From the IMG/VR virus record IMGVR_UViG_3300045988_173544: DNA of 64,000 nucleotides. One strand, 5' to 3'. Under the pieces are notes generated by a model. That model did no database searches. It saw nothing but the letters and a program-made list of their open reading frames with translations, and was not told where the DNA came from. Of this stretch, positions 27,385 through 46,490 are shown piece after piece. Within the stretch, counting starts at the first letter, position 1. The number at the start of each line of letters is the position of its first letter. The position numbers and the translations under genes are program-made. Source of the stretch: a virus.

Positions 27385-28767
27385 TTATTTCTCTGCATAA
27401 TTCTTAAGGTTAATAGCAGCATTTTCATCCCTATCCATTACCATCCCGCACTTAGGGCACTTAAATACTTCATAACCTTTTTTCATCTCTTTATTCTTAT
27501 ATCCACAGTTACTACATATTTGTGAGCTTGCAAAGAACCTATCTGCTTTTATTACATTAACACCATTTCTTTCAGCTTTATACTTCAGCCAATCAAGCCA
27601 TGTACCCATACTTGTTTTCTGTATACCTTTAGCTACCTTCTTATTTTTCTTCATATTATTTATAGCAATATTTTCTACTACAATACTTTCAGGAGCTATT
27701 CTCTTTAATAAGTGAGCTACAGACTGCTTTCTATTATCTTCCTTAATATTCTCTATTTTTATCTGTGTACTTCTTAAATATCTTTCCAGTCTTCTTAACT
27801 TATTACTCTTTCTTAATCTCTTATTACCATAAGGAGTTTCTATATAATCATTATTAAGTCTTGCATGCAGCTGTAGTGTACTTATCTTTCTCTGTAATCT
27901 CTTACACTTTCTTTCATACTTTTTAACTTTCTCAGAAGTTGCAGGATTTAATACTTTAGTACCATCTGAAAGAGTTGCCAGTTTTCTACACCCTACATCT
28001 ACTCCCAATACTCCTTCTAAGTTTTGTAAGTTCAAATCATTATCTCTATATTCTGTTTTTACTGAAACAAAGAAATCTATACCATCTGTAGAAACTGTAA
28101 TATAATCTGCTAAAGTACCTTCTAATCTTCTATCCCAACCTTTTATCTTCATACCACCTTTTATTTTAGGAAGATATAACTTTCCATCTTTTATTCTTCC
28201 TACAGTAGTATAAGAACCTTTTGAAGACCATTTATGTGGTTTAGGAAATCCTTTAGCGTCAGCAGGGAATTTTAAGCTAGCTTCTTCCCCCTTCTTACTT
28301 CTCAGTTTTCTCTGCCTTTCATAGAAATCTGCTAAAATTTCTGAAGCACCATAATTACCTTTAGCGTCTTTCTTAAAATACTTCTCATTCCAAAACTTCT
28401 TATTAGCTGTATATAAAGCTCCTATAGAAGCCGGACTTACAACACAATCCAAAGCTTTTGCGTCACATTCTCTTAACCATGCATTTTCCGGAAGTTTCTT
28501 AAACTGTGTAAACTCCTTACTTATTCTTCCAAAATTCTTAATATTCTTTACTTTAGAGCTTGCTATATCATCAATATTTATATCATAATCTTCTTCATAT
28601 AATCCTTGCAATTCTCTACAGCCCCAATTATACGTAAATCTTGCAGCTGTAATATTTTTCTGCATTGCTGCTTTTTGCGCTTTATTTACGTGGATTTCTC
28701 TCTTAAACCCAATTTTACCTACACTCTCCTCTTTATCCTCTACAGGAGCTAACAACATTTCTTCCAT
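27385..28767 (-). CDS. tnpB: TnpB/Cas12f-like RuvC nuclease (IS605 OrfB family), ~460 aa
   Basis: RuvC-I GVDVG; C-terminal CSNCG...CPKCG zinc finger and RuvC-III DRDENAAINL; N-terminal FTYNWGCRELQ block; AGAGAGG RBS; dedicated promoter 28946..28974. Confidence 0.8.
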   Translation of the reverse strand: MEEMLLAPVEDKEESVGKIGFKREIHVNKAQKAAMQKNITAARFTYNWGCRELQGLYEEDYDINIDDIASSKVKNIKNFGRISKEFTQFKKLPENAWLRECDAKALDCVVSPASIGALYTANKKFWNEKYFKKDAKGNYGASEILADFYERQRKLRSKKGEEASLKFPADAKGFPKPHKWSSKGSYTTVGRIKDGKLYLPKIKGGMKIKGWDRRLEGTLADYITVSTDGIDFFVSVKTEYRDNDLNLQNLEGVLGVDVGCRKLATLSDGTKVLNPATSEKVKKYERKCKRLQRKISTLQLHARLNNDYIETPYGNKRLRKSNKLRRLERYLRSTQIKIENIKEDNRKQSVAHLLKRIAPESIVVENIAINNMKKNKKVAKGIQKTSMGTWLDWLKYKAERNGVNVIKADRFFASSQICSNCGYKNKEMKKGYEVFKCPKCGMVMDRDENAAINLKNYAEK

Positions 28768-28945
28768 ATTACCTCTCTTAATAATTTTCAGATGTAACAA
28801 AGGGAGAAGAGTCAGAGGTAAAAATTCTCCAAGGTAAAAATATTGTAAAAACCCTTAGAGAAGAAAAATAACATTTAACACATAATAAAGTCCCAACTCT
28901 TCCCCTGTGTTACACATCTAAAATCGTTCCTATCTTTATGTATCT

Positions 28946-32924: not shown

Positions 32925-33455
32925 ATGGAACATTATGCAGGACGACACTTAATAATTGATGGCGTGTTCCGCCCCGATAAAAAAGAATTATTATCAGACC
33001 GTACAACTATATCACAATACTTAGAAGATGTGACCAAAATAACAGGGATGACTTTAGTATTTCCGCCGATAGCAATGTCTTTCCCTTTTGCTGGAGAAAC
33101 CGATAGACTTATAGAAAAACTTGAAGCAGAAGGTAAATGTGACGATAGCGCTGTTTTCCAAGAGTTTAAGAAACATATACACCAGCGCAATACTATTGGT
33201 GGAGGAGTTTCAGCTATAGCTGTATGGGTTGAAAGTCACTGCACAGTGCATTCTTGGACTGAGAAAAATTACGTAAGTATTGATTTATTCTCATGCTCCA
33301 GTTATGAATATGAGCCGGTTGTTGATTTTACAAACAAAATATTTGGCTTGGAGAAAGCAAGTTACGTTGTCGTAGACCGCATGATGGACGGTTCCGCACC
33401 ATTAATCCAACAATTCACTCTGGATGAACTTAATAAAATATCTTGTGCGGTATAA
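32925..33455 (+). CDS. pyruvoyl-dependent S-adenosylmethionine decarboxylase-like (SpeH/SpeD class 1) proenzyme
   Basis: GRHLIIDG N-terminus and VESH..HSWTE..IDLFSC self-processing/active-site pattern. Confidence 0.55.
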   Translation: MEHYAGRHLIIDGVFRPDKKELLSDRTTISQYLEDVTKITGMTLVFPPIAMSFPFAGETDRLIEKLEAEGKCDDSAVFQEFKKHIHQRNTIGGGVSAIAVWVESHCTVHSWTEKNYVSIDLFSCSSYEYEPVVDFTNKIFGLEKASYVVVDRMMDGSAPLIQQFTLDELNKISCAV

Positions 33456-34386: not shown

Positions 34387-34461
34387 TGGTTGCGGGGGAG
34401 GGAGTTGAACCCACTACTTCTGGGTTATGAGCCCAGTGTGCAACCGGTACACTTCCCCGCT
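34387..34461 (-). tRNA. tRNA-Met (CAT), initiator-like: GGG/CCC anticodon stem, CUCAUAA loop, mismatched 1:72, CCA encoded
   Basis: manual cloverleaf fold. Confidence 0.7.
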
Positions 34462-34466
34462 ATATA

Positions 34467-34811
34467 CTAATTTAAGAATTCTTTAAAATCATACGACTTG
34501 TACATTTTTCGTTTAGAAGGTCTTGTCGGAGCTTCGATAACTCGTAAATAGTTCTGCTGAACCTTATAACAATAAGATGAATAAAGTTTCGGATTATCGT
34601 TTTTAAAACGTGTTTGGTCAAAGTACGTTCTAGGTTGTGTAATGTGATGAACTCCGTAATTCCCTACGGTCACTACATCACCGGGTTTTATATGTTCTTT
34701 TAAACGCCCTTGCAGTTCTTCGATTTCCCTCTGTAAGATACGTTCCTGTTCTTTGAGGTTTACGTAATGTTGTATGTCAATCTCAAAAGCGGTGCGTTCT
34801 CTTTCGTCCAT
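34467..34811 (-). CDS. hypothetical protein (115 aa; start at MDERERT)
   Basis: ORF trimmed so it does not overlap tRNA-Ser. Confidence 0.5.
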   Translation of the reverse strand: MDERERTAFEIDIQHYVNLKEQERILQREIEELQGRLKEHIKPGDVVTVGNYGVHHITQPRTYFDQTRFKNDNPKLYSSYCYKVQQNYLRVIEAPTRPSKRKMYKSYDFKEFLN

Positions 34812-34822
34812 AATAACCTTCC

Positions 34823-34911
34823 TGGAGGAGAGCCTGAGAGTTGAACTCAAGACACATTGTGCCCGATGGGTTTAGCAAACCCTCCTAAGGACCGCCCTAG
34901 TGGTACTCTCC
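34823..34911 (-). tRNA. tRNA-Ser (GCT), class II, CCA encoded
   Basis: acceptor GGAGAGT/GCTCTCC, anticodon loop TTGCTAA, long variable arm, T-loop TTCAACT. Confidence 0.7.
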
Positions 34912-35227
34912 TTACAGAAAAGTATATCATAGTTTTTATAAAAAGTCAACTAACTTGGTAATATTTCCCTAGTTTCCTAGAGGTAGGTATTTACTGGGTT
35001 ACTTACGCTTGTCGAACTGCCCAACCTACGGTCCCATCGCTCTATGTGTTTTGTACAAGATTTTCACTTGGAGCCAACTGCATGCAGGGGTTCTTTTAAT
35101 TCACATACTACCGGCAATCGATAGAAGGGTATGACCTCCACGGGGTGACAAAATCCCGCTTTCTCATACTATGCAGACTATTACCAAGTCAGTTAACCAA
35201 TTCTTTAAATAGATTAGTTGACCTTAA

Positions 35228-35303
35228 TTGGAAGGTCGTGTGGGATTTGCACCCACGCATAATGGTTTTGCAGACCACCTCGTTAACTACTTCGACAACG
35301 ACC
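35228..35303 (-). tRNA. tRNA-Cys (GCA), U73 discriminator, CCA encoded, T-loop TGCAAAT (G55)
   Basis: perfect 7-bp acceptor AGGTCGT/ACGACCT; anticodon stem GTGGT/ACCAT. Confidence 0.65.
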
Positions 35304-35583
35304 TAAGAGTCTCAGCATATTCCCGATTTTCTTTTCTTAATCTCTCAATAGCTAACTTCTGTAATAACTCAGCTTGTTCTCGTCTTAGTTCTTGATATTC
35401 TTGACAAGTTGCTTTATCTGACGAAATACAAGTATAACTTGAGGTTGTACCCGAACCCGTCTTAAATAAGATGGGAACAATCATGATAAGTAGAAATATC
35501 AATGCTCCAATAGGGAGTAACCATATTAAATCTACGCAACTATAATTAGGTGATTTTGTTCCATCTTTATTATCAATACTCAT
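35287..35583 (-). CDS. hypothetical small membrane protein
   Basis: ORF; hydrophobic core. Confidence 0.45.
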   Translation of the reverse strand: MSIDNKDGTKSPNYSCVDLIWLLPIGALIFLLIMIVPILFKTGSGTTSSYTCISSDKATCQEYQELRREQAELLQKLAIERLRKENREYAETLRSLSK

Positions 35584-36134
35584 TGTACTACCTCCTTTAT
35601 ATCTCCCTTAAAATCACGAGTCCAATTTTCCCACGGAATGTGACCTTCGGGAATTCTTTGTTCGGGTAGGGAAGCTTCGTTTAATTTACCTAATACGTAT
35701 TTCTTGTTATGGTCAACAGCCCGACATTCACAATTCCCTTCGTATAATTCAAGGAATGATGTTATTTTTCCACATCTTGGGCAAGTGAATACTTCCCCTG
35801 TTACTGTTAATGCGCAGCACTCTAGTAAGAAATCATTTAAAGTTTCAGGATACTTAAATCCCTCGAAAGACACCACCCGCCCGTTTGATAACCTTCTAAG
35901 AATAGTTCCGTACTCGTATGATAAATAATCCTCTTTCGAAGGGCGTGTATAAAGTCCTAAATCATCCCTAGACTCCATAAGTTTCTTTTCCCAAGGAGTA
36001 TGAACTTTAGAAAAAATAGCGTCTATGAGGTTTCTCTCGGATTGATTAAATAGACTACGTCTTTGTTGTCTTAATGTAAATAACTTATGCTCTGTTAAGT
36101 CAATCCGAGGTTGATTTGGAACTTGAACTACCAT
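35580..36134 (-). CDS. hypothetical protein with CPRCG...CEC zinc motif
   Basis: ORF. Confidence 0.55.
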   Translation of the reverse strand: MVVQVPNQPRIDLTEHKLFTLRQQRRSLFNQSERNLIDAIFSKVHTPWEKKLMESRDDLGLYTRPSKEDYLSYEYGTILRRLSNGRVVSFEGFKYPETLNDFLLECCALTVTGEVFTCPRCGKITSFLELYEGNCECRAVDHNKKYVLGKLNEASLPEQRIPEGHIPWENWTRDFKGDIKEVVQ

Positions 36135-36143
36135 TACACCCTC

Positions 36144-36917
36144 CTATATGAAAGGTTTTGCTATAGCAGTTCGCACATTTTTAATGAAACTTTTAAAGAA
36201 CCCTTGTTTCCTCGGTTTCAAAACATACTTGCTTTTCTCATCTTCAATAAGATTATTGATATATGTTCGTACTTCCTCTTCTGTTGCTTGCGGGAGTGAT
36301 ACTTCTTTTGCTACATCATCTTTACCCATTTGACCAAGTTCTTGTACAAGTTTTGTCAGAGTTAAGTCGCAGAATTCATCTTCCCAGTCAGCGATGAAAT
36401 AAAATCTGTCGTGAATATTCCAGATATTATTAGTCTTTTCTTCAAAAGCTCCAAAAACTATAGGGTCTCGCTGTCTTTCTTCTACTGCAATCTGTCGTTC
36501 TGTTTCTCCAGTATAATCAGTAAATACAACATAGAACTGGTCGAAGATTTTTAAAGACTTAAGTTCAGAAATTTTTTGAACTACTTCATCTGGAATTATT
36601 CTAGGGTATTTAGATAATTCAATAATTTTAACAACTCTACCCTTAACATTGTTCAAGTAAAAAGTAATATCTTCAGATAGGACATAAGTTGAAATCCCGT
36701 GTTTAAGAAGTTCTCTTTCTTTGGTTATAACACCATAAGTGAATGCAAGTCTTTGTACAACTGCATTTTGACCTACTGCCATAGCCTTAGTTAACTCCTT
36801 CATAATAATATTCTTGAAGGAAGTAAGAAAATCGTCAGACATGTCTAACTTATGCTCTTTAACGAAGTTAAAATATTCTTGAGGGCTTAATTCCTGCTTA
36901 ATGTTCTCATTGTCCAT
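36144..36917 (-). CDS. hypothetical protein (257 aa)
   Basis: ORF; promoter ~36965. Confidence 0.55.
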   Translation of the reverse strand: MDNENIKQELSPQEYFNFVKEHKLDMSDDFLTSFKNIIMKELTKAMAVGQNAVVQRLAFTYGVITKERELLKHGISTYVLSEDITFYLNNVKGRVVKIIELSKYPRIIPDEVVQKISELKSLKIFDQFYVVFTDYTGETERQIAVEERQRDPIVFGAFEEKTNNIWNIHDRFYFIADWEDEFCDLTLTKLVQELGQMGKDDVAKEVSLPQATEEEVRTYINNLIEDEKSKYVLKPRKQGFFKSFIKNVRTAIAKPFI

Positions 36918-37066
36918 GCTTGTTCTCCTTTATGAGAGAATTATATCACAAGAAAGGCAATTTGTCAACTTTTATGTAATAATGGTCTGGATAGCCGGCT
37001 CCGCCCCGGCGACAGAGGTCCCCAAAGCCCCTATGTTACTAAGCTACACTATATCCAGATAATTAA

Positions 37067-37158
37067 TGGAGGAGAGAGTGGGATTTGAACCCACGGAGGC
37101 TTTTAGACCCCGACAGTTTTCAAGACTGCTCCAATAAGCCAGGCTCTGGCACCTCTCC
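37067..37158 (-). tRNA. tRNA-Ser (TGA), class II, CCA encoded
   Basis: manual fold. Confidence 0.75.
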
Positions 37159-37165
37159 ATAAAAA

Positions 37166-37239
37166 TTCCCCCGCTACGACTCGAACGTAGGAAATATCGG
37201 AACCAAAATCCGACGCCTTACCAGCTTGGCTACAGGGGA
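37166..37239 (-). tRNA. tRNA-Gln (TTG), U1:A72
   Basis: manual fold. Confidence 0.7.
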
Positions 37240-37248
37240 GTATAAAAA

Positions 37249-37320
37249 TACCCGGTGCTGGATTTGAACCAACGACCTCCACTTTGTAAGAGTGGCATTC
37301 TACCGCTGAATTAACCGGGC
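37249..37320 (-). tRNA. tRNA-Val (TAC)
   Basis: manual fold. Confidence 0.7.
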
Positions 37321-37325
37321 TTGAA

Positions 37326-37400
37326 TGGAGCGAGTAGAGGGAGTCGAACCCTCGCCGTCTGTTTGGAAGACAGAAATCATAACCGTTAGACCACACTCGC
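37326..37400 (-). tRNA. tRNA-Gly (TCC), CCA encoded
   Basis: manual fold; anticodon loop CTTCCAA. Confidence 0.75.
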
Positions 37401-37405
37401 AAAAT

Positions 37406-37479
37406 CACCCTCGGCAGGACTCAAACCTGCGACGTGAGACTTAGAAGGTCCCTGTTCTATTCATCTGAACTACGAGGGT
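37406..37479 (-). tRNA. tRNA-Arg (TCT), A1:U72
   Basis: manual fold. Confidence 0.65.
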
Positions 37480-37484
37480 TTATT

Positions 37485-37557
37485 AGCCCCCTAGAGGATT
37501 TGAACCCCTGACATCCACGTCCGTAGCGTGGTGTTCTTTCCGCTGAACTAAGGAGGC
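37485..37557 (-). tRNA. tRNA-Arg (ACG)
   Basis: manual fold. Confidence 0.7.
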
Positions 37558-37755
37558 TTAGTCTGAGTAATCCCTTAACTGTTCTAAAAGAACACGTTTA
37601 CCATCAGGTTTTATAAGTACGCAACCTTGAATAGGTTTGTAATTACAAGCATACCCCAGTGCGTCTGCCTTAGCATGGCATTCCCAATTACTCATAAATA
37701 CGCCAAGTCCTAAAACCAAGAGGACTGTTATTACAATCAAATTAAACTCTGCCAT
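37558..37755 (-). CDS. small membrane protein (65 aa)
   Basis: ORF with TM helix. Confidence 0.45.
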   Translation of the reverse strand: MAEFNLIVITVLLVLGLGVFMSNWECHAKADALGYACNYKPIQGCVLIKPDGKRVLLEQLRDYSD

Positions 37756-37763
37756 AATTTACC

Positions 37764-38057
37764 TCATTTATCTTCCTGAGGTGGAAATATCCAATCGTAC
37801 ACTGTATTAACTATTTTTAAAGGTAGAAATAAGAACCCTAAAATTAGTGCAAAAGGCTGCGCAAAATTTAAGAATTCTTCCGGACTCATTCCAGTGAGTA
37901 AATAAACTTCGTGGAATAAATCCTCGTTTTTCTCTACATATTCATCTATGTTGTTGAGCTTCCTTTTCAGAAGACACCAACAAATAATCCCTGAAATTAT
38001 GTAATAGTATAGAAAATACATTAACTGAGTTCCCACAGTAGATAATTCAATACCCAT
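37764..38057 (-). CDS. small membrane protein (97 aa, 2 TM)
   Basis: ORF; promoter ~38085. Confidence 0.5.
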   Translation of the reverse strand: MGIELSTVGTQLMYFLYYYIISGIICWCLLKRKLNNIDEYVEKNEDLFHEVYLLTGMSPEEFLNFAQPFALILGFLFLPLKIVNTVYDWIFPPQEDK

Positions 38058-38106
38058 AGCTCTATGTTAGCATATTTTTGAAGATTTGTCAACTTTTTAG
38101 AAATAA

Positions 38107-38182
38107 TGCCCAAGACTGGAGTCGAACCAGCAAATGTCGCAGGGTCTAAACCTACCGCCTTTACCAATTTGGCAACTCGGGC
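38107..38182 (-). tRNA. tRNA with anticodon TAG (decodes CUA, Leu) but a class-I-like 7-nt variable region
   Basis: manual fold; canonical acceptor, D and T arms. Confidence 0.55.
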
Positions 38183-38188
38183 TTTTAT

Positions 38189-38273
38189 TAGGCATGACTG
38201 GAGTCGAACCAGCATTGTTTCTAATGTGATGGATTTTAAGTCCATTGCGTTTCACCAATTTCGCCACATGCCC
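38189..38273 (-). tRNA. tRNA-Leu (TAA), class II
   Basis: manual fold; long variable arm. Confidence 0.75.
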
Positions 38274-38461
38274 TTAAATATCATACAATAGGATTACTTG
38301 AGTACCTATATCTCTCTTCCCAGGTATATGTGCTTACCTAGGGTAGTTTTAAGAGTGTTTTCTTCTGCCCATACTGAAATCTTACCAACTACAAATCTAT
38401 TTTCCAGTAGCAACGGATATTTATGCAGACAAGTTATTCGTTAAACTATGTATGATAATGG

Positions 38462-38534
38462 TGAGTGCAGAAAGGTTTGAACTTTCACCTTGTATCTTAA
38501 AAGGATACTGCTCTACCAATTGAGCTATACACTC
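38462..38534 (-). tRNA. tRNA-Lys (TTT)
   Basis: manual fold. Confidence 0.7.
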
Positions 38535-38541
38535 ATTTTAA

Positions 38542-38618
38542 TGGTGGCTCCGGTTAGATTTGAACTAACGACGCTAGCCTCTTCAGGGCTACGCTCTACC
38601 CGACTGAGCTACAGAGCC
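38542..38618 (-). tRNA. tRNA-Phe (GAA), CCA encoded
   Basis: manual fold. Confidence 0.75.
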
Positions 38619-38939
38619 TCATAGACAACTTTTACAAGCATTTCCACCGCCGTGTTTCACGCACTCCGCATACGCATTTTGTTTTAAAATATCTTTAAAA
38701 CGGTCATAATCTTTATAACAATCATTACGATTACTGTAATAAAGACGTGAAATATCAGTACCGTATAACCTAATAAACATAGGGTCAAAAACCCCGGAAT
38801 TACCGCAATAACAAGCTGCCCCAACAATATTAGAAGTTTTAACAACTGTTATACCATCGTCATGTGCTTCAAATATAGTACTTTGCGCTAATACAGGGAC
38901 TGTATATAAAAATAACATAAGTATTAAAAATTTCTTCAT
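38619..38939 (-). CDS. secreted Cys-rich protein with signal peptide (106 aa)
   Basis: ORF; MKKFLILMLFLYTVPVLA signal-like N-terminus. Confidence 0.5.
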   Translation of the reverse strand: MKKFLILMLFLYTVPVLAQSTIFEAHDDGITVVKTSNIVGAACYCGNSGVFDPMFIRLYGTDISRLYYSNRNDCYKDYDRFKDILKQNAYAECVKHGGGNACKSCL

Positions 38940-38959
38940 TATGTAATCCTCTTTAAATA

Positions 38960-39031
38960 CGCAGGTTGCATGAATTGAACATGCGACTCGTAGTTTTGGA
39001 GACTAGAATTTTACCGCTAAACTAAACCTGC
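38960..39031 (-). tRNA. tRNA-Trp (CCA), with a C:C mismatch at 27:43
   Basis: manual fold; perfect acceptor GCAGGTT/AACCTGC and T-stem GCATG/CATGC. Confidence 0.55.
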
Positions 39032-39270
39032 ATGTTATTCTTTAATCTAGGACACCAATCCGGTATCGGTAGTTCTTTGTAAGTTAAAGCAGACCTTAAA
39101 ATTGGGTATCCCCAGTTTGTCTTAACTCCAGACTCTTTGAACTTTTGTACTTCTTCCTTTGAATACTGTTTGTAGTAGCAACAATATTTTGGTCTCCCCT
39201 GGAGCATGCCATTGTGTCTGCAATATTCACAATCATTACAATCTGTAATCTCTATAATAATTTTGTTCAT
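39022..39270 (-). CDS. Cys-rich small protein (start MNKIII)
   Basis: ORF trimmed to internal Met. Confidence 0.4.
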   Translation of the reverse strand: MNKIIIEITDCNDCEYCRHNGMLQGRPKYCCYYKQYSKEEVQKFKESGVKTNWGYPILRSALTYKELPIPDWCPRLKNNMQV

Positions 39271-39285
39271 TGTCTTCCTTGTCCT

Positions 39286-39362
39286 TGGGGTGACGGGAGG
39301 GGTTTGAACCCTCAACCGCCGGAACCACAATCCGGAGCTCTAGCCAATTGAGCTACCGCCAC
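39286..39362 (-). tRNA. tRNA-His (GTG), C73, CCA encoded, no G-1 encoded
   Basis: manual fold. Confidence 0.7.
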
Positions 39363-39394
39363 AGCTTTTATATAACCTTAGTGTAAATCCACAT

Positions 39395-39553
39395 CAGGTT
39401 ATGCGTTGTGTCCTTTAACTTCCTTAGGTTCAAAACTTCTTAACCAATATAAGTCCCCATCAGTAGGGATTTTCTCAGGCATTCCAAGTTCAATACCTAA
39501 AACTTTTTCCGGTTTCTCAGATATTTGGTCTTCTATAATAACTGTATTTGTCA
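39395..39553 (-). CDS. tiny ORF (~52 aa) with its own consensus promoter at ~39575-39605
   Basis: below the ORF-track size cutoff; promoter TTGACA-17-TATAAT. Confidence 0.35.
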
Positions 39554-39608
39554 TATACTTCATTACCCTGTAATTAATTATAACATATTATTATATATTT
39601 GTCAACTT

Positions 39609-39812
39609 TTAGAAAGTACATGTTGCTATCACTAATAGAAATGATATGATTGCAAGCACAAGCATAACTGTTTTAAATGCTTCGTATATTTTCCTCTTTA
39701 AAGTACATTTACACATTTCCTGAGGGCAAATACTCCAGTAATAGCATTGTTCGCACTTATGGGTAAAATTAAGCTCACAACGTTCAATCATTTTTATTAT
39801 CTCCAGAACCAA
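39609..39812 (-). CDS. small Cys-rich membrane protein (67 aa)
   Basis: ORF; C-terminal TM. Confidence 0.45.
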   Translation of the reverse strand: MVLEIIKMIERCELNFTHKCEQCYYWSICPQEMCKCTLKRKIYEAFKTVMLVLAIISFLLVIATCTF

Positions 39813-40038
39813 TAGAGTTACACATATACCCTACAGAACTCCTTGGGTAAATTTCACTATTTATCTTCTGCAATACTTCTTCCGGAAAATAAGAGCCTTT
39901 AAAATCTCCGCCAAAGAAGTATTTTACGTAATATCTAATTCCAGCTCTATCAATATCCATAGAGTCTACATATCCCTTAATATTTAATTCCTCTATAAAT
40001 ACCCTATCGCCTATGTCATATTTAGTATTCAGTTTCAT
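39784..40038 (-). CDS. hypothetical protein (84 aa)
   Basis: ORF. Confidence 0.45.
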   Translation of the reverse strand: MKLNTKYDIGDRVFIEELNIKGYVDSMDIDRAGIRYYVKYFFGGDFKGSYFPEEVLQKINSEIYPRSSVGYMCNSIGSGDNKND

Positions 40039-40284
40039 ATTATGTATCCTTTGTTTAAGAAATAATGGAGGGAGTTTTTTAATTGCCTTGCAGGAACCAC
40101 CTGCTACGTGCCCTCCTCACGCCGTCGAACGCCGACGGTATGTGCCTTTCGTGAGTCAGTATGCCGACTACCTTTCGTACTCTCGGATACGGAGGAATTT
40201 CTACTGCCGTCTGGTTATGTTTATTTGTTCGGGAGGTCGAAACCAGAGTAAAGGACCTCACCTGCTTTTGTGCAAGGTCTCCAA

Positions 40285-40374
40285 TGGTGGGTAAGGAAGG
40301 AGTTGCACCTCCAACGGCTTGTTAGGCAACGCTTTTACAGAGCGGTCCGACCAACTGGTATTCGGCTCTTACCC
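40285..40374 (-). tRNA. tRNA-Tyr (GTA), class II, CCA encoded, T-loop TGCAACT (G55)
   Basis: perfect acceptor GGGTAAG/CTTACCC; anticodon loop CTGTAAA. Confidence 0.65.
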
Positions 40375-40398
40375 ATAGCACCGGAAAATGCTGAAAAA

Positions 40399-40474
40399 TG
40401 GTGGAACTCGTAGGACTTGCACCCACACCCTAGGACTTATGAGGTCCCCGCTCCGCTGTTTGAGCTAGAGTTCC
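40399..40474 (-). tRNA. tRNA-Met (CAT) elongator-type, CCA encoded, T-loop TGCAAGT (G55)
   Basis: perfect acceptor GGAACTC/GAGTTCC. Confidence 0.65.
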
Positions 40475-40913
40475 AGAGTACGAGTATTTTACAACCCCTC
40501 GTCTAACTGGGCGGCGCTGGTTGATATTTTAATCTCCTTCATACAATGTTCGGGCATTGTATCGAAACTCAGTTTCCCGAAAAACTAAGCCTACGCAGAA
40601 CACGGTTTACACCGAAATGGCACATCTTTAAGGTATTGCCGAGTCGAACGGCTACCTACGTGGCTCCTAACCGTAGTTAGGCGTGGCTGTGAGCGAGTTA
40701 TGAGCCCACTCTGTGCACCGTTGCACTTTCACTTAAAGACAGGTTATATTACGGTTCTTTCACCCCGCTGTCGAATAACACTCAACGACCTGCTATATTA
40801 AAACCCCTAGCAGTGGGTATGCACCAGTATATTAACCCCTACTGGCGGGTTCCTCGGAATGAGGGTTCTTTCACTACAAGAACATTGTAGTATCGCATGG
40901 GATTGGCTACAAT

Positions 40914-40985
40914 TAGGAACGGAAGGACTCGCACCTTCAACCTCTGAATTATCGGTTCAGTGCTCTACTTTTAAGCTACGCTCCT
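40914..40985 (-). tRNA. tRNA-Ile (GAT), T-loop TGCGAGT (G55)
   Basis: manual fold. Confidence 0.6.
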
Positions 40986-41181
40986 ATAGCTGGTTAGGTG
41001 TACTTTTCGTCGAACGTCGACTTTTTTCTCGATTTTTCACCTCTTCCTCAGGAGACCAGTGACCCCTGTGTATACCGCTGTTTTTCACCTACTCTTCTAC
41101 CAGATATTATAGAAGTTTCTCTTATCCCTCAAAAAGTTATCTGCTCTCTTCCTGAGTTTAGGTATACCTCTAGTAGTTTAT

Positions 41182-41255
41182 TGGGAAGGGATGGACTTGA
41201 ACCATCTACCTTGGAGGTATGAGCTCCATGTTCTGACCAGTTGAACTACCTGCCC
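41182..41255 (-). tRNA. tRNA-Met or tRNA-Ile2 (CAT)
   Basis: manual fold; T-stem GATGG/CCATC. Confidence 0.65.
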
Positions 41256-41259
41256 ATAA

Positions 41260-41334
41260 TGGCTCCAGGAGCAGGGCTCGAACCTGCAACCTACCGGTTA
41301 ACAGCCGGGCGTTCCGCCATTGAACTATCCTGGA
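41260..41334 (-). tRNA. tRNA-Asn (GTT), CCA encoded
   Basis: manual fold. Confidence 0.7.
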
Positions 41335-41506
41335 ATATGACCCCGGTGTATCGTCCCGGAGATACGCATTCTTTCCAGCTAAGGAAACTGAAACCTTTTC
41401 CAAAACCCCGCCTATAGGAATGAAACAGACGCTTGTTATTAGAGCTCATAAACAAGAGGGACTGCAATAAAATTGCTTGGTACACCTGAGTTACACATCT
41501 TAAAAC

Positions 41507-41577
41507 TGCCTCCAGAGGGACTTGAACCCCCAAAGCGGGTTTACAAAACCCGTGTTTTACCATTGAACTATAGAGGC
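41507..41577 (-). tRNA. tRNA-Thr (TGT)
   Basis: manual fold. Confidence 0.7.
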
Positions 41578-41757
41578 AAGCGAGTATAACAGAATATGCG
41601 CAATAACTGTTATACCCTAGGTTCTTATTTCGGAATATACCTTAAAACAACCGGGGCAACGCTTTCATCTCATATAAGAGCGTAGGCTACATAAGCTCTT
41701 TCTTCCTTGTCACCTAGCGGAAATAGCCGATACTAGGTCTTAGTTACCCTAATTAAG

Positions 41758-41833
41758 TGGTGGAGACTAAGGGAATTGAACCCTTCCAGTCTGCTTGCAA
41801 AGCAGTCTCGCCAGCCTTGGTACATGAGTCCCC
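41758..41833 (-). tRNA. tRNA-Ala (TGC) with G3:U70 and CCA, but a non-canonical D-arm
   Basis: acceptor GGGGACT/AGTCTCC; anticodon hairpin CTGC-TTTGCAA-GCAG. Confidence 0.5.
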
Positions 41834-42822
41834 AAATTGGGAGCAGGTGCTTTATGTTTAAGTGTTAAACGTCAGAGCTGCTCCAGACAAACATCACTAC
41901 CTTCCTTATATCCCGCTCAATTGGCGTGGCGGTGTGTTCCTAGAGTCTTGTATAGCGCTATTCAACTCTAGCGAACACTGGTTATCCAAGATAACACCGG
42001 GTTTAAAATAAGGGAACCTGCCGAGTCGAACGGCTTACTTCCACGAATATTTAGTTAACGTAGTAGATATTATACTAATACTTAAGTGTCGTGGTAAGGT
42101 AGCGCTACTATAATCAGCAACCCTTTTCATTATTATTTACAAGAGCTCTTATAAATAACAACTAGCTGAAGGTTCCTATAATTAATCTGTTAAACAGGAG
42201 TTAACGGAATTGGACCGTCAATTCCTGTTTTATACTGACTCCGTCGTCAGCCTTCATTTAATATTATCTTCGCCCTTATAAGTCTTTTTATCTGTATTCA
42301 TGATACCTACTTAAATGGCGGTGGGTACGAAGCTCGAATTTGTTTCCTAGGAGTGACAGTCCTAAGTTTTAACCGCATAAACTAACCCACCTTATAAAAT
42401 GGCAGTTCGGGGTGCCAGCCCGCCATCCCGTCGGATGACTGGTACTTGTATCATCTCGGTATACAAGTCAACCGCTGTAACGTTTTCGACCATACAACAC
42501 ATGCTGGTTAAGGTTGTGTGGATTGTCAGGAAGTTGTAAACCAGCAAACTTCCTCCAAGTTACAGTCTGTTTTGAAACTTTGTAATGGTACCCCAGCACG
42601 GTAACGCTCCGAGTGCTCCGCTGTGAAAGAGCGGTGACTTAACTTTCTGTCCCCTGGGGCAAATATGAAACTGTCAACGTGCAATAGACAACACAATTAC
42701 ATCTATGTAATTATTACCATTGTCTGTTGTTTATCAACAGTTCCATTATATCATGGATTACATAATTTGTCAACTAATCTATTCAATTGTCAAAGTGCAA
42801 TTTTGTTCTTTTACAGAACTGA

Positions 42823-43202: not shown

Positions 43203-43625
43203 TTGGAAATAAAGTCGGTCTCAGAAAGTGCAGTATCTTTTGGGTCATACCAGAACATACTGAAAACTCTTTATAAGAAGGGCAAAATGCCTCAAGTAAA
43301 GAGAGGTTTGTACGGGGATATTCTTACTAAAGACAACGTATCTTTGGAACATTTAAAGCCCCACAGCGAAGGAGGAAAAACAATCTTATCCAACTTAGCC
43401 CTTGCGTCTAAGCAGAAAAATAACGCAAGGGGAGCGAAGCCGCTAAGCGAAGTGTTGAATTGGGAAATGGTTAATGACTATTTATCTCAATTCAATTTTC
43501 GTATTAAGGGATTTAACGGTGAAGCTTATGCTGAAATGATTAAGAAGACTGTTGAGGAACTCGGAGTTATAAATCCGAAGGAATTGGCTAAGAAAGGTAA
43601 GAAGCATTTAGATAAAATAGTCTAG
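43203..43625 (+). CDS. HNH endonuclease (free-standing, homing-type) in the tRNA island
   Basis: SLEHLKPHSEGGKT...N...N..RG HNH motif; + strand. Confidence 0.6.
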   Translation: MEIKSVSESAVSFGSYQNILKTLYKKGKMPQVKRGLYGDILTKDNVSLEHLKPHSEGGKTILSNLALASKQKNNARGAKPLSEVLNWEMVNDYLSQFNFRIKGFNGEAYAEMIKKTVEELGVINPKELAKKGKKHLDKIV

Positions 43626-43651: not shown

Positions 43652-44044
43652 TGGTGGAGGTGCGGATAATCGAAATCCGGTCCTATCCGTCCTTACAACA
43701 ACTGTTGTACAAGTTTCCTTTGGTTCATCTTTTCTGTCAAGTAAAAGGAGATTGTCAAACAAAGGTTACAAGAGTTCTCCATTGACACCGTTTGCTTTTT
43801 ACTCGTTACGTGAGCGTCTGGAACGATACAGATTACTTTACGGGACTCACCGATGGCTGTGCCTGACCTATTGTAGATTACAGCTTAGTCTACGGGTCAC
43901 TTCTTAGGCAGCGATTGCTGTTCTGTAGCCGAAGTCAGCTTTGATTACGTTGTTAGCGTTTATCTTTTTGTACGATTTAAAGAGTTCATACGTCTCTACT
44001 TGCAATTGAAGCCAGGTTGCAGACAGTCAAAACCTGTCACCCCC
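43652..44044 (-). ncRNA. ssrA: tmRNA (ssrA), ~393 nt; tag reading frame 43904-43957 encodes ANNVIKADFGYRTAIAA-stop
   Basis: 5' GGGGGTG pairs with 3' CACCTCC (G3:U70) followed by ACCA; 3' domain GGAC-CGGAT-TTCGATT-ATCCG matches the tRNA-like domain of tmRNA; the internal tag ORF ends ...AIAA then TAA. Confidence 0.7.
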
Positions 44045-45065: not shown

Positions 45066-46490
45066 TCACGTTTCTTCGGATTTGTCAACTATTTCATTGT
45101 AAATCTCCTTCATTCTTTTTAATAATACCGGTCTTTCGTTCTCAATTTTTTCGTCTAAATACTCCTGCCATAAAGTTTTCAGGATGTCCCCGACCAATTT
45201 TCCGGAAGGAATATTTAAAGTAACCATAACATCGTGCCCGTCCACTGTTAAATCTGTAACTGACGGAATATGTTTAGGGTTGAGAAGCTTGAGACAATCT
45301 TTGTACATTCTCCAGAAATACATGAAATCAGTCTTAGTTTTCATATTAGCTCTGGAGTCGGCATATTTCATCCAAATAAAGTCTTTTAAGGAAACCCCGC
45401 CTTTACCAAGCTTAATTATGAGTTTCATTAAGGACTTTTTTCCACCAATCATAGACATGTGGTTTCCTACAAGAGTTGACACGTACTTCTGGGTATCTTT
45501 CGGAAAACCCCACTTCTTCATATCAACTTCCACGAGCTTTTTACCTGTTTTATCGTGACCTACAAAACGTACTTTACCTTCATCAGATAATTCGTGTGTT
45601 ACTTTTCCAACATCATGATATAGGGCAGCAAGCTTTAAATCAAAGCTAAGATTAACTTTATCCAAAGCTTTTAAAGCGTTTAATACGTGAGTATAAACAG
45701 TCTCGTGGTGGTAATGAGCGCCATCAACACCTCTTAAAGCAGCTACAGCTGGGAAGAAATATTCCAAGAGTTCGTACTCATCCAAATATTTCACAAACCC
45801 GTAACCGTTCCCACAAATAAGTCCTTTAATTAATTCCAGAAGTACTCTTTCTTTCGGAACTGAAGGAGACTTTACCAAATCCCTCAAAGCATGTATTTTA
45901 TAATGAAGATTATCTTCAATGATTAAGTTACTTCCGGCTGCAAAACGGAGAGCTCTTAAGATACGTATAGGGTCGTCTTTAAACTTCTGAAACATATCCC
46001 CGTGCATTCTAAGAACGCCATTGTTCAAATCTTTCCAAGTGCCTGGAATAGTAAGGATTTCCCTGTTATCTTTATTTTCGGGGTCCTGTTTGCAGGTTAA
46101 GAACATTGTATTGATAGTAAAATCCCTGCGCACAGCGTCTTTATACAAATCGTGACATACAGCAATTTCACAACCGCCATATAATAAGACTGGAAAATTT
46201 CTCCCAACAACCGGTCCCATTGATAATGCGCACCCGGTGTGTTTATGTACATCATTTATACTTTTACCAGGATGTAATTCTAATGTGCAATCAACATCTC
46301 TTGGAAGAATTCCCTGTACCATATCACGAACAGCACCTCCAACCATATACAGGGTTCCCATTTCAGAGAATACTTTAGACATTTTATCAAAGCGCTCTAA
46401 AATAGCCCTGCAACTTTTCAGGTCGGACTGCTTTTCAAATAGGGCTTCATCAATACAGTAGTGTGTCTTTACAAGTCCTTTAGTCGTCAT
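45066..46490 (-). CDS. cca: tRNA nucleotidyltransferase (CCA-adding enzyme) with HD domain
   Basis: GGAVRD...DVD polymerase-beta head motif; LAALYHDVGK HD motif. Confidence 0.8.
   Translation of the reverse strand: MTTKGLVKTHYCIDEALFEKQSDLKSCRAILERFDKMSKVFSEMGTLYMVGGAVRDMVQGILPRDVDCTLELHPGKSINDVHKHTGCALSMGPVVGRNFPVLLYGGCEIAVCHDLYKDAVRRDFTINTMFLTCKQDPENKDNREILTIPGTWKDLNNGVLRMHGDMFQKFKDDPIRILRALRFAAGSNLIIEDNLHYKIHALRDLVKSPSVPKERVLLELIKGLICGNGYGFVKYLDEYELLEYFFPAVAALRGVDGAHYHHETVYTHVLNALKALDKVNLSFDLKLAALYHDVGKVTHELSDEGKVRFVGHDKTGKKLVEVDMKKWGFPKDTQKYVSTLVGNHMSMIGGKKSLMKLIIKLGKGGVSLKDFIWMKYADSRANMKTKTDFMYFWRMYKDCLKLLNPKHIPSVTDLTVDGHDVMVTLNIPSGKLVGDILKTLWQEYLDEKIENERPVLLKRMKEIYNEIVDKSEET

Follow-up and report, generated by a model that had tools for sequence, protein, structure and literature searches.

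Matched A18 and G55 at the D-loop/T-loop elbow of five tRNAs encoded by one phage

The tRNA island

The window analysed here, a stretch of 64,000 nucleotides (IMG/VR record IMGVR_UViG_3300045988_173544), represents a large phage, probably from the gut. ARAGORN located 24 tRNA genes at 34387-42391, all of them on the minus strand; the default setting gave 23 tRNAs and a tmRNA, and a relaxed threshold (-ps90) added a second tRNA-Ser, Ser(GCU). The original prediction of at least 22 tRNA genes was correct, although its list of 22 left out Pro(UGG) (36983-37058) and Asp (42316-42391). The Asp gene falls beyond the range covered by that prediction (34387-41833). The encoded CCA end, ascribed there to many of the genes, is present in 14 of the 24 and absent from ten, including tRNA-Ile. 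The CCA-adding enzyme is indeed nearby (45066-46490, minus strand; Pfam domains PolyA_pol, PolyA_pol_RNAbd, HD and tRNA_NucTran2_2), and the phage also encodes a tmRNA (43652-44044, minus strand; Rfam RF00023, 95.5 bits) with the tag ANNVIKADFGYRTAIAA.

The initiator-like tRNA(CAU) (34387-34461; RF00005, 49.5 bits) has a 1:72 mismatch, the anticodon stem GGG/CCC and a canonical GG/TTC elbow, and Ser(GCU) (34823-34909), a weak call obtained by ARAGORN only at -ps90 and giving no match in the Rfam search, has the canonical T-loop TTCAACT. The Ser(UGA), Gln, Val, Gly, Arg(UCU) and Arg(ACG) genes form a cluster at 37067-37558, detected by ARAGORN and Rfam, in which every member but Arg(UCU) combines GG in the D-loop with TTC in the T-loop. 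Canonical Leu(UAG), Leu(UAA), Lys, Phe, Trp and His genes, found by the same two programs, occupy 38107-39362 with small ORFs in between. At 41181-42391, ARAGORN and Rfam revealed a tRNA(CAU) designated Met3 and the Asn, Thr, Ala and Asp genes, separated by spacers without ORFs; the Ala gene, which has an aberrant D-arm, gave no RF00005 match. This group is the upstream portion of a stretch free of ORFs of at least 100 aa that extends to the Ile, Met2 and Tyr genes, and a promoter-like TTGACA...TATAAT is located at 42747-42777. The island is mosaic between strains, with variants of Asp, Phe and Trp and with Glu present or absent.

tRNAs with A18 and G55

Five of the genes have G at position 55 of the T-loop. 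Four of these had been noticed before with exactly the T-loops found by ARAGORN, while the fifth, Pro, had been overlooked. tRNA-Cys(GCA) (35229-35304; RF00005, 58.0 bits) has A18 at 35288, G19 at 35287 and the T-loop TGCAAAT (U54-G55-C56-A57-A58 at 35251-35247, G55 at 35250); its CCA is encoded and it is 99-100% conserved in 10 strains. The class II tRNA-Tyr(GUA) (40285-40374; 33.9 bits) has A18 at 40356, G19 at 40355, G55 at 40306, the T-loop TGCAACT and an encoded ACCA. Met2, a tRNA(CAU) of the elongator Met or Ile2 type (40399-40474; 54.5 bits), has A18 at 40457, G19 at 40456, G55 at 40420, the T-loop TGCAAGT and an encoded ACCA, and 66% of its folding ensemble is cloverleaf. tRNA-Ile(GAU) (40913-40986; 63.2 bits), the only one of the five without encoded CCA, has A18 at 40969, G19 at 40968, G55 at 40932 and C33 in place of U33; across strains its position 57 varies (TGCAAGT or TGCGAGT, the latter in the window), and G55 is kept. 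The most divergent is the candidate tRNA-Pro(UGG) at 36983-37058, called by ARAGORN only and giving no match in the RF00005 search even at E<=10, with A18 at 37040, G19 at 37039, the T-loop GGCGGAG (G54-G55-C56-G57-G58 at 37005-37001), an encoded ACCA, a cloverleaf as the minimum-free-energy fold and 100% conservation in 10 strains. Identity elements are retained: U73, the discriminator, in Cys, A73 and C1-G72 in Pro and the long variable arm in Tyr. Across 10 strain-level contigs, conservation of the five genes is 97-100%, compared with 89-99% for the neighbouring ORFs and down to 88-92% for the flanking spacers, although these contigs, the closest ones, are nearly identical and their conservation adds little weight.

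The register of the T-loop is well supported for Ile, Met2, Tyr and Cys, since G falls at 55 in ARAGORN as well as in the Rfam covariance model, and RF00005 aligns this G to the model U55 with high posterior probability, so that an alternative register with U at 55 is not borne out. The same alignment puts A on the model G18 and G on the model G19. G55 was read correctly in the original prediction, but the partner change from G18 to A18 escaped attention, and with it G55 is no longer a lone deviation. A18 is present in all five G55 tRNAs of the window and G18/U55 in the 19 others (Fisher p = 2.4e-5), which indicates covariation of the 18:55 tertiary pair, and the deviation can be considered as a compensated one. 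The adjacent elbow pair is altered in Watson–Crick fashion, to A19:U56, in tRNA-Arg(UCU) (37406-37479; RF00005, 56 bits; G18 at 37462, A19 at 37461, U56 at 37423, T-loop TTTGAGT), which likewise had not been noted. This A19:U56 state also occurs in the tRNA arrays of L311 (an Acidobacteriota-labelled MAG) and L274 (a Pyrinomonadaceae-labelled MAG) and in Thr of L506.

The coupling extends beyond the window. Among 1909 unique tRNAs drawn from pattern-selected loci, with position 18 assigned by a GG-preferring heuristic (which is conservative for the coupling claim) and not by covariance-model alignment, the 18:55 combination was G:U in 1519, A:G in 304, A:U in 17 and G:G in 15, the mixed states being rare. 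The D-loop GG was missing in 214 of 231 G55 tRNAs versus 9 of 818 U55-C56 tRNAs, a comparison for which the selecting pattern did not include the D-loop. At position 57, canonical loops have 279 A and 695 G, whereas the G55 tRNAs shift to A (72 A and 47 G; p = 1.5e-11). Since the sequences share phylogeny, such p-values overstate the support; about five or six independent 18:55 switches can be identified.

Occurrence in related phages and beyond

G55 tRNAs were also found in relatives of this phage. Two of them, L011 and L012, share 49-53% identity with the window in the CCA enzyme and have the Ile, Met2 and Tyr genes in the same order. Met2 has the A18/G55 pair in the window and in L012 and G18/U55 in L011; Ile is A18/G55 in the window and G18/U55 in both relatives, the L012 copy having the same acceptor stem; Tyr has G55 in both, with A-G at 18-19 invariant. 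Cys is A18/G55 in L506 and canonical in the related L015.

Of 407 tRNAs in an unbiased IMG/VR sample, 3 had G55, as against 5 of 24 here, and in such unbiased sampling the A18/G55 variant makes up about 0.5% of phage tRNAs. It is clustered by genome: where one G55 tRNA is present, 9% of the other tRNAs are G55 as well, a 14-fold clustering, and some contigs are wholly or mostly G55 (15 of 15 in L119; also L321 and L293). Overall, phage tRNAs with the compensated variant number in the hundreds, and some initiator tRNAs of bacteria have it as well; in Patescibacteria MAGs, A18/G55 occurs in chromosomal initiator tRNAs, and the initiator and a second tRNA(CAU) were each found in both states. Among cultured phages, the same state is represented by tRNA-Tyr of the Microcystis phage Ma-LMM01 (NC_008562, 145177-145261; D-loop GAGTAGTCGAA, T-loop TGCAAAT), which belongs to another phage family with another host and yielded no further tRNA in the 3 kb examined. 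This gene is annotated plainly as tRNA-Tyr. We found no description of the A18-G55 elbow pair in the literature searched.

A probable exchange of an elbow contact and its possible drivers

G18 and G19 have been termed “constant” (PMC9976931) and Ψ55 “universally conserved”, and in the canonical elbow G18 is inserted between 57 and 58 of U54-U55-C56-R57-A58 and bonded to Ψ55 (PMC4810234). Cys, Tyr, Met2 and Ile combine A18 with U54-G55-C56-R57-A58, and Pro combines it with G54-G55-C56-G57-G58. Judging from the sequences, we consider it probable (about three chances in four) that the five tRNA genes are functional and that, of the two contacts by which the D-loop and T-loop form the elbow, one has been exchanged as a pair.

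T-loops outside tRNA are UGNRA (88.7%) or CGNRA, with an almost exclusively adenosine intercalator between loop positions 4 and 5 and a reported preference for UGHAA, which the A57 shift of the G55 tRNAs matches; an rRNA T-loop GGAAG exists as well (10.1101/2022.12.26.521914). The T-loops of the FMN and cobalamin riboswitches described there share with our tRNAs the U-G-N-R-A pentaloop, in which A is favoured at loop position 4, two additional nucleotides on the 3' side of the loop and the donation of an adenine by the partner loop. Since the riboswitches use this arrangement, U-G-N-R-A into which an adenine is inserted, G55 would keep the sharp turn of the T-loop and pair with A18, preserving the L-shape. 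This geometry is proposed by analogy. Here the motif is in a tRNA, the D-loop serves as its receptor, and loop position 3 is still engaged in the Watson–Crick pair G19:C56. The outer face of G19:C56 is the stacking surface for RNase P, the ribosomal L1 stalk and T-boxes (PMC4810234), and it would be unaltered in the A18/G55 tRNAs, which would explain why they are tolerated.

The five tRNAs share with canonical tRNAs (RF00005) the cloverleaf, the 7-nt anticodon and T-loops, G19:C56, G53:C61, A58 and identity nucleotides, and with canonical phage tRNAs the island setting with a CCA-adding enzyme and tmRNA, while differing at 18 (A) and 55 (G). The Levitt pair covaries between G15:C48 and A15:U48, and it is likewise a core tertiary pair with two matched states, as is 19:56 (G19:C56 or A19:U56, the latter observed here). 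However, those exchanges are of the Watson–Crick type, whereas 18:55 passes from a non-Watson–Crick G·U-type to an A·G-type pair, changing a modified “universal” nucleotide. tRNA-Pyl of Desulfitobacterium hafniense is also a natural G55 tRNA without G18-G19 and the T-Ψ-C consensus, but it has A56 instead of C56 and no G19, while the tRNAs described here keep G19:C56; its 5-nt D-loop, 3-nt variable loop, 6-bp anticodon stem and anticodon CUA also set it apart from our otherwise standard tRNAs (PMC1851642). Metazoan mitochondrial tRNAs depart from G18/G19/U55/C56 too, but they lose the elbow interaction, with changes of the ribosome and RNase P (PMC4810234), whereas in our case the interaction appears to be kept by a paired change in tRNAs using the bacterial translation system.

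A different question is what drives the accumulation of this state. One may tentatively suggest, in line with the nuclease escape raised in the original prediction and although we regard it as rather unlikely, that A18/G55 was selected to hide the phage tRNAs from a host factor reading the T-loop or elbow, for example, a defence tRNase cleaving the T-loop or enzymes of modification and quality control like TruB, TrmA and TrmH, or that a phage enzyme thereby tells its own tRNAs from those of the host. This suggestion is compatible with the structural explanation given above. The Burkholderia CDI toxin CdiA-CT E479 reportedly cleaves tRNA between T54 and Ψ55, and T5 tRNAs are said to evade anticodon nucleases via loop mutations. 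The suggestion is favoured by the clustering of otherwise rare G55 tRNAs in particular genomes, up to entire contigs, and by the wealth of tRNA end and break repair in this phage clade: in addition to the CCA/HD enzyme here, RtcB and an Rnl2-type ligase are located within the L011 tRNA island, and homologs of the 257-aa ORF of our island adjoin a Pnkp/Rnl1 fusion, RtcB and Thg1. However, the same pair toggles among chromosomal, presumably essential, Patescibacteria initiator tRNAs, the G55 tRNAs show no strong bias to particular anticodons or identities, only five of the 24 tRNAs are affected here while close relatives have canonical Met2 or Ile, and the TnpB search yielded no host clue, with no defence system tied to the host.

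The separate origin proposed in the original prediction, by which the G55 tRNAs represent a horizontally acquired block marked by higher G+C, is not supported and appears improbable. Tyr, Met2 and Ile are indeed adjacent in the ORF-free stretch of 45-48% GC (40-42 kb) in a genome of 35% GC, and the strain mosaicism of the island would suit such acquisition, but Cys (35.2 kb) and Pro (37.0 kb) sit in other sub-clusters, so that the clustering of G55 genes in the GC-rich part holds for three of the five. The raised GC of this stretch results from its being an ORF-free run of tRNAs (47-61% GC each) and spacers. Moreover, the Ile-Met2-Tyr order is shared with L011 and L012 in spite of the divergence of their CCA enzymes, the 18:55 state switches in place within the Met2 and Ile orthologs, and neither cultured phages nor IMG/VR yielded a donor for a G55 block.

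Decay into pseudogenes or non-translational tRNA-like genes, which could be suspected from the failure of the Rfam model to recognise Pro, C33 in Ile and the low score of Tyr, is the least credible possibility, because the change at position 18 is compensatory rather than random, the genes have intact stems and retain their identity nucleotides, four of the five genes exceed the Rfam gathering score of 29, all five are better conserved between strains than their spacers, Tyr keeps A18/G55 across three diverged lineages, and cellular initiator tRNAs have the same pair.

Returning to the proposed exchange of the elbow contact, its consequence for modification follows straight from the sequence, as the original prediction implied for Ψ55: U55 and G18 are absent, therefore Ψ55 and Gm18 are impossible, and such tRNAs are no substrate for TruB and offer no G18 for methylation. 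As far as sequence comparison can tell, A18/G55 seems to be an infrequent second state of the elbow, at which tRNA arrays of phages and some tRNAs of Patescibacteria have arrived repeatedly, and a purely neutral alternative state alone does not account for its 14-fold clustering within genomes. In one phage, the “universal” G18-Ψ55 contact would thus be replaced by a matched pair in five of 24 tRNAs.

Five tRNAs with A18 and G55

Five tRNA genes of the window, Cys(GCA), Pro(UGG) at 36983-37058, Tyr(GUA), a tRNA(CAU) at 40399-40474 (Met2, an elongator Met or Ile2) and Ile(GAU) at 40913-40986, all on the minus strand, carry G55 in the T-loop, and in all five the D-loop has A-G in place of G18-G19. 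With positions 18-19 in lower case, the D-loops are AAACagCG in Met2, AAAagTA in Ile, AGTagTTA in Cys, AGCTTagTA in Pro and ATACCagTTGG in Tyr. The original prediction had named four of these genes by their T-loops (TGCAAAT in Cys, TGCAACT in Tyr, TGCAAGT in Met2, TGCGAGT in Ile), and all four are real. ARAGORN returns the same loops, and the alignments of these four to RF00005, the Rfam tRNA covariance model, set G opposite the model's U55, which rejects an alternative register, A opposite its G18 and G opposite its G19. Their scores (Ile 63.2, Cys 58.0, Met2 54.5, Tyr 33.9 bits) lie above the gathering score of 29 and are not pseudogene-like. Pro, called by ARAGORN, is a fifth case, and the partner change at position 18 had been overlooked.

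In canonical tRNA, Ψ55 pairs with the D-loop G18, which is inserted between 57 and 58, and G19 pairs with C56 (PMC4810234). The remaining 19 tRNAs of the window have GG in the D-loop, except one with G-A, and A18 is coupled to G55 in 5/5 versus 0/19 cases (p = 2.4e-5; here and below, p-values are inflated because tRNA sequences are related and not independent). The G-A case, Arg(UCU) at 37406-37479 (-), has the D-loop AGATgaATA and the T-loop TTtGAGT (position 56 in lower case), where A19:U56 is a Watson-Crick replacement of G19:C56. This gene is an internal control: within the island, elbow pairs are kept up by paired changes. The A19:U56 pair occurs again in Arg(UCU/UCG) of large tRNA arrays in MAGs labelled Acidobacteriota (locus L311) and Pyrinomonadaceae (L274), as well as in locus L373 and in Thr of L506, a more distant related phage. 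It follows directly from the sequence that an A18/G55 tRNA has neither Ψ55 nor a G18 for 2'-O-methylation.

According to ARAGORN, all five genes have a 7-bp acceptor stem, a D-arm, a 5-bp anticodon stem with a 7-nt loop and a 5-bp T-stem with a 7-nt loop. The minimum-free-energy fold recovers the acceptor stem and T-arm in Pro, Cys, Met2 and Ile; in Tyr it recovers the acceptor stem and not the T-arm. Compared with the elbow consensus (G18, G19, U54, U55, C56, A58), all five depart by A18 and G55 and keep G19 and C56, while U54 and A58 are kept in all but Pro. These nucleotides are a consensus feature and not a requirement of RF00005, and tRNA membership stands. Pro is the weakest gene call of the five: it has no RF00005 match even at E<=10, and its T-loop is GGCGGAG (G54 G55 C56 G57 G58); its predicted fold is a cloverleaf and its sequence is 100% conserved in ten strains. 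U33 is present in four of the five. Ile has the anticodon loop CCGATAA, with C33 in place of the near-universal U33, and the same loop is found in the alignment with its ortholog in the diverged related contig L012. Identity nucleotides, scored against E. coli rules, are kept: U73 in Cys, A73 with C1-G72 in Pro, and a class II arm with A73 in Tyr. Decay to pseudogenes is rejected, given intact stems, four of five scores above the threshold and 97-100% conservation among strains versus 88-92% in some spacers. Strain conservation and compensatory change indirectly support the view that the five tRNAs are functional. The sequence signature is under-scored by gene finders, with Tyr at only 34 bits and Pro missed by Rfam.

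T-loops form a general RNA motif: those of FMN and cobalamin riboswitches follow U-G-N-R-A in 88.7% and CGNRA in 10.9%, nearly always with an adenosine inserted between loop positions 4 and 5, tRNA uses U-U-C-R-A, and a GGAAG T-loop is known in rRNA (10.1101/2022.12.26.521914). Four window tRNAs have pentaloops of the Y-G-N-R-A form, UGCAA in Cys, Tyr and Met2 and UGCGA in Ile, and CGCAA loops were also found (locus L293); the GGCGG of Pro is closer to the GGAAG-like rRNA class than to YGNRA. Position 18, the intercalating base in canonical tRNA (PMC4810234), is A in all window G55 tRNAs and covaries with position 55 across orthologs and in a large sample of tRNAs. U54 and A58 in four of the five are compatible with a reverse-Hoogsteen pair of loop positions 1 and 5. 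At position 57 the A:G ratio is 72:47 in G55 loops versus 279:695 in canonical ones (p = 1.5e-11), and this preference for A57 is consistent with a riboswitch-type arrangement.

By analogy, Cys, Tyr, Met2 and Ile probably carry a riboswitch-type arrangement transplanted into tRNA, a U-G-C-R-A loop combined with A at 18, the position that intercalates. A G-N-R-A sequence bends the backbone in the same sharp turn as U-N-R does. In the proposed geometry, G55 would donate hydrogen bonds to N1 of the adenine, whereas in the canonical pair G18 donated to O4 of Ψ55, so that the two bases would exchange their donor and acceptor roles. The outer G19:C56 face, the stacking surface for RNase P, the L1 stalk and T-boxes (PMC4810234), would be unchanged. 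The only feature that tRNA-Pyl, the known G55 tRNA, has in common with the window tRNAs is G55; it also lacks G19:C56, and its CUA anticodon, 6-bp anticodon stem, 3-nt variable loop, 5-nt D-loop and single nucleotide between the acceptor and D stems are absent from the five G55 tRNAs (PMC1851642).

The tRNA island and its other RNAs

In the whole window, ARAGORN called 23 tRNA genes, at 34387-42391 and on the minus strand only; a second tRNA-Ser(GCU) at 34823-34909, recovered at a slightly relaxed threshold, makes 24 in total. The original prediction had listed 22, its second Ser being recovered in this way, while Pro(UGG) and Asp (42316-42391) were missing from the list. RF00005 matches 20 of the 24 at the gathering score with default filters, Tyr being added with more permissive ones, and CCA is encoded in 14 of the 24 genes. 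The window further encodes an HD-domain CCA-adding enzyme (45066-46490) and a tmRNA (43652-44044, -; ARAGORN; Rfam 95.5 bits). The tmRNA tag is ANNVIKADFGYRTAIAA, identical in L012, and ANNVVRADFGSKAMAIAA in L011, the other diverged related contig; the window tag resembles the cyanobacterial ANNIV...A(I/V)AA tags.

The ENA contig ERZ28659773 ZELL14-1 scaffold_41 (213,670 bp) is 100% identical to the window over the tRNA region, and independent samples contribute nine more contigs at 96-100% identity. Judging by the record name, the source is probably a human-gut metagenome. Among cultured phages, megablast, blastn and tblastn found no close relative, with matches only at the level of tRNA-Asn or of 25-29% protein identity. 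A search of IMG/VR with the CCA enzyme gave no match; the relatives were obtained by exact-protein look-ups. A TnpB/IS605 OrfB-type gene (Cas12f1-like TNB domain) is present at 27385-28800 (-), and its homologs (36-38% identity), through which the host was sought, were all in related phage contigs rather than in a recognisable host genome.

A promoter-like motif, AAAAGTTGACAAAT followed by TATAAT-like hexamers, is found on the minus strand ahead of each tRNA or ORF sub-cluster (34923-34953, 36960-36984, 38084-38108, 39597-39621 and 42747-42777), and its repetition suggests sigma-70-type transcription units. One of them appears to start at ~42760 and to span Asp to Tyr, without an ORF of at least 100 aa. 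Two plus-strand genes lie in this otherwise minus-strand region: the one at 32925-33455 encodes an S-adenosylmethionine decarboxylase (Pfam E = 3e-17), and the one at 43203-43625 (+), adjoining the tmRNA, is weakly HNH-like.

The tRNA-Ala(UGC) at 41758-41833 (-) has G3:U70, a normal T-arm and an invariant D-region CATGTACCAAGGNTGGCGAG without a normal D-stem. Rfam matches it best, though weakly, to tmRNA (25.5 bits), and its orthologs in L011 (14559-14632) and L012 (17109-17190) were both missed by ARAGORN. By the compensatory changes at five pairs across lineages, it is conserved and probably functional. The GC-rich spacers have no Rfam match at E<=1 to known RNA families (GOLLD, ROOL and others). 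The 482-nt ORF-free spacer between Ala and Asp, 41834-42315 (-), folds with z = -5.0 (0/100 shuffles as good) and is 88-91% identical in eight of ten strain-level contigs and 98-100% in the other two; it is possibly a structured RNA co-transcribed with the tRNAs. The spacers 41579-41757, 41335-41505 and 34910-35228 are 98-100% conserved among strains and thermodynamically ordinary (z ~ -1). An exact 17-nt repeat, AGCCGTTCGACTCGGCA (minus strand), occurs in two separate spacers, at 40637-40653 and 42019-42035, and forms a T-arm-like hairpin (GCCG / TTCGACT / CGGC).

ARAGORN also misses L011 16526-16605, which Rfam matches to tRNA at 42.4 bits. Its acceptor, D- and T-arms are normal, but its anticodon region is too long and may contain an intron or an extended arm. 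An unannotated element of ~90 nt, with no ARAGORN call, lies between tRNA genes of the all-G55 contig L119 (9217-9307) and of Caulobacter phage CcrColossus (JX100810, 62633-62722); it is 75-82% identical among L119, Caulobacter phages, DSS3_MAL1 and Rhodococcus phage REQ2.

Occurrence in related phages and in cells

Homologs of the CCA enzyme are graded, and two of them, at 53% and 49% identity, come from L011 (209 kb) and L012, contigs with conserved synteny in which RecD2 helicase, LRR protein, CCA enzyme, tmRNA and tRNA island follow one another. The order Ile, Met2, Tyr is common to these contigs and the window. Tyr is A18/G55 in all three lineages, A-G being invariant across the alignment. 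For Met2, the window and L012 have A18/G55, and L011 has G18/U55 (AAA-GGTAG / TTCAACT). Of the three, only the window has A18/G55 in Ile; the L012 gene has an identical acceptor stem with TAGTTggCTA / TtCAAGT. In the more distant related phages, Cys has GAGTagTTA/TgCAAAC in L506 versus AAGTggTAA/TtCGAGT in locus L015. As read from these alignments, the 18:55 state switches in place inside orthologous genes, which argues against a separately acquired block. The original prediction had raised a separate origin for the G55 tRNAs as one possibility; the kept Ile-Met2-Tyr order and the toggling within orthologs speak against it. G55 tRNAs, which it suggested looking for in related phages, occur in L012 (Met2, Tyr), L011 (Tyr) and L506 (Cys).

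Two IMG/VR pattern scans (Tyr and Met), with the anticodon loop and G55 T-loop fixed and the D-loop free, gave at least 240 loci (at least 120 each), all totals being lower bounds. In the loci listed, ARAGORN called at least 1072 tRNAs, at least 223 with TGC loops, of nearly every amino-acid identity. Among the matches listed, GG is absent from the D-loop in 214/231 G55 tRNAs versus 9/818 U55-C56 tRNAs. For the 1909 unique tRNAs of all sets, again among the matches listed, with position 18 assigned by a heuristic rule that prefers GG and works against the hypothesis, positions 18:55 are G:U in 1519, A:G in 304 (a minimum, sampled via scans chosen to find G55), A:U in 17 and G:G in 15; 19:56 are G:C in 1827 and A:U in 17; and 54:58 are U:A in 1825, A:U in 44, A:A in 24, C:A in 8 and G:G in 6. 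Other T-loop variants of phage tRNAs, at IMG/VR and MAG loci within L017-L502 (e.g., L102, L107, L159, L293, L368), include A54...U58 (AGCGTTA, ATCGTTA), an apparent swap of the U54:A58 pair, and also A54...A58, C54 (CGCAAAT) and G54...G58, the last as GGCGGTA together with A18 in the D-loop.

When position 55 was left open (N) in an unbiased scan, it was T in 123/123, and the 407 neighbouring tRNAs had only one TGC and two AGC loops; this rarity places G55 at ~0.5% of phage tRNAs. Where a genome already has one G55 tRNA, the share among its other tRNAs is 9% (p = 4e-11). G55 makes up all or a large part of the tRNAs in some contigs: L119 (15/15), L142 (10/35), and L293, L321 and L368 from Verrucomicrobia-labelled or other MAGs. 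The bias of G55 towards particular tRNA identities is weak or absent, and gives no strong pointer to an anticodon nuclease.

Among cultured phages, Microcystis phage Ma-LMM01 and its relatives carry A18/G55 in their tRNA-Tyr, and several MaMV Microcystis phage records have near-identical Tyr genes without annotation. CcrColossus, Listeria AG20, Xanthomonas X1, Atu_ph07, Pectobacterium PM2 and Erwinia pEa_SNUABM_4, chosen as BLAST matches to the G55 arrays of L119, L142 and L206 or to a G55 Tyr query, proved canonical at 18:55. A single genome scan matched mostly Patescibacteria MAGs, with a conserved chromosomal cluster of tRNA(CAU), tRNA(CAU), Asp, Thr and Thr. The initiator tRNA and the second tRNA(CAU) are A18/G55 in these and G18/U55 in other Patescibacteria. 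The A18/G55 initiator, which has the 1:72 mismatch, reads AGCGGGGTGGAGCAGTagTAGCTC...GGTgCAAGTCC, and the second tRNA(CAU) reads ...CAGGTagTTAG...GGTgCAAGTCC in locus L284 versus ...CAGTTggTTAG...GGTtCAATTCC in L266. Its presence in a cellular initiator means that the variant must suit processing, charging and the ribosome.

Possible selection and significance

We put at about one in five the probability that the A18/G55 elbow is a selected "orthogonal" design, an adaptive escape in which the Ψ55/G18 signature is dropped and the G19:C56 face kept. Escape from a nuclease or a modification, which the original prediction had raised, would agree with the clustering of G55 tRNAs by genome and with the RNA-repair genes of the clade: RtcB and an Rnl2-type ligase lie within the L011 island, and a Pnkp/Rnl1 fusion, RtcB and Thg1 adjoin homologs of the island's 257-aa ORF. 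However, A18/G55 is found in cellular initiator tRNAs, G55 is spread over all tRNA identities and the 18:55 state is reversible among close relatives; thus escape is not needed to explain the variant, and we consider it unlikely as the driver. The 257-aa ORF (36144-36917, -) has no Pfam match and 395 homologs, many in phage contigs of 200-300 kb; some (L507, L509, L511) lie near a kinase-phosphatase-Rnl1 fusion, RtcB, Thg1, HAD_PNKP and DUF2828, and it may belong to a tRNA-repair neighbourhood.

Textbooks treat G18, Ψ55 and TruB, the maker of Ψ55, as nearly universal in tRNA. Ψ55 is "universally conserved" in the words of one review (PMC4810234) and G18/G19 are "constant" in another (PMC9976931), the 18-55 pair is required for fast translocation according to a reference cited in PMC4810234, and in the literature U55G turns up solely as a mutation that breaks the elbow. 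Full-text searches of the literature outside subscription journals returned no account of a tRNA class with A18-G55. A18/G55 is an apparently undescribed, compensated elbow state of ordinary tRNAs, and the window is one instance among several, ranging from complete tRNA sets in certain uncultured phage-like contigs through one cultured cyanophage to Patescibacteria initiators.

This natural compensated state points to a second viable solution for the elbow, probably the same as that of riboswitches, which would tie tRNA to the wider T-loop motif family. The A18/G55 tRNAs are a ready natural experiment on the roles of Ψ55 and G18, and may be useful as an orthogonal-tRNA scaffold. Should selection be behind the clustering by genome, a so far unrecognised host factor that reads the tRNA elbow would be implied. 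If escape were true, these tRNAs would still be ribosome-competent, would evade T-loop- or elbow-directed tRNases and would be independent of TruB, TrmA and TrmH, which would open an additional front of the tRNA arms race beside the phage repair enzymes, perhaps in Patescibacteria too.
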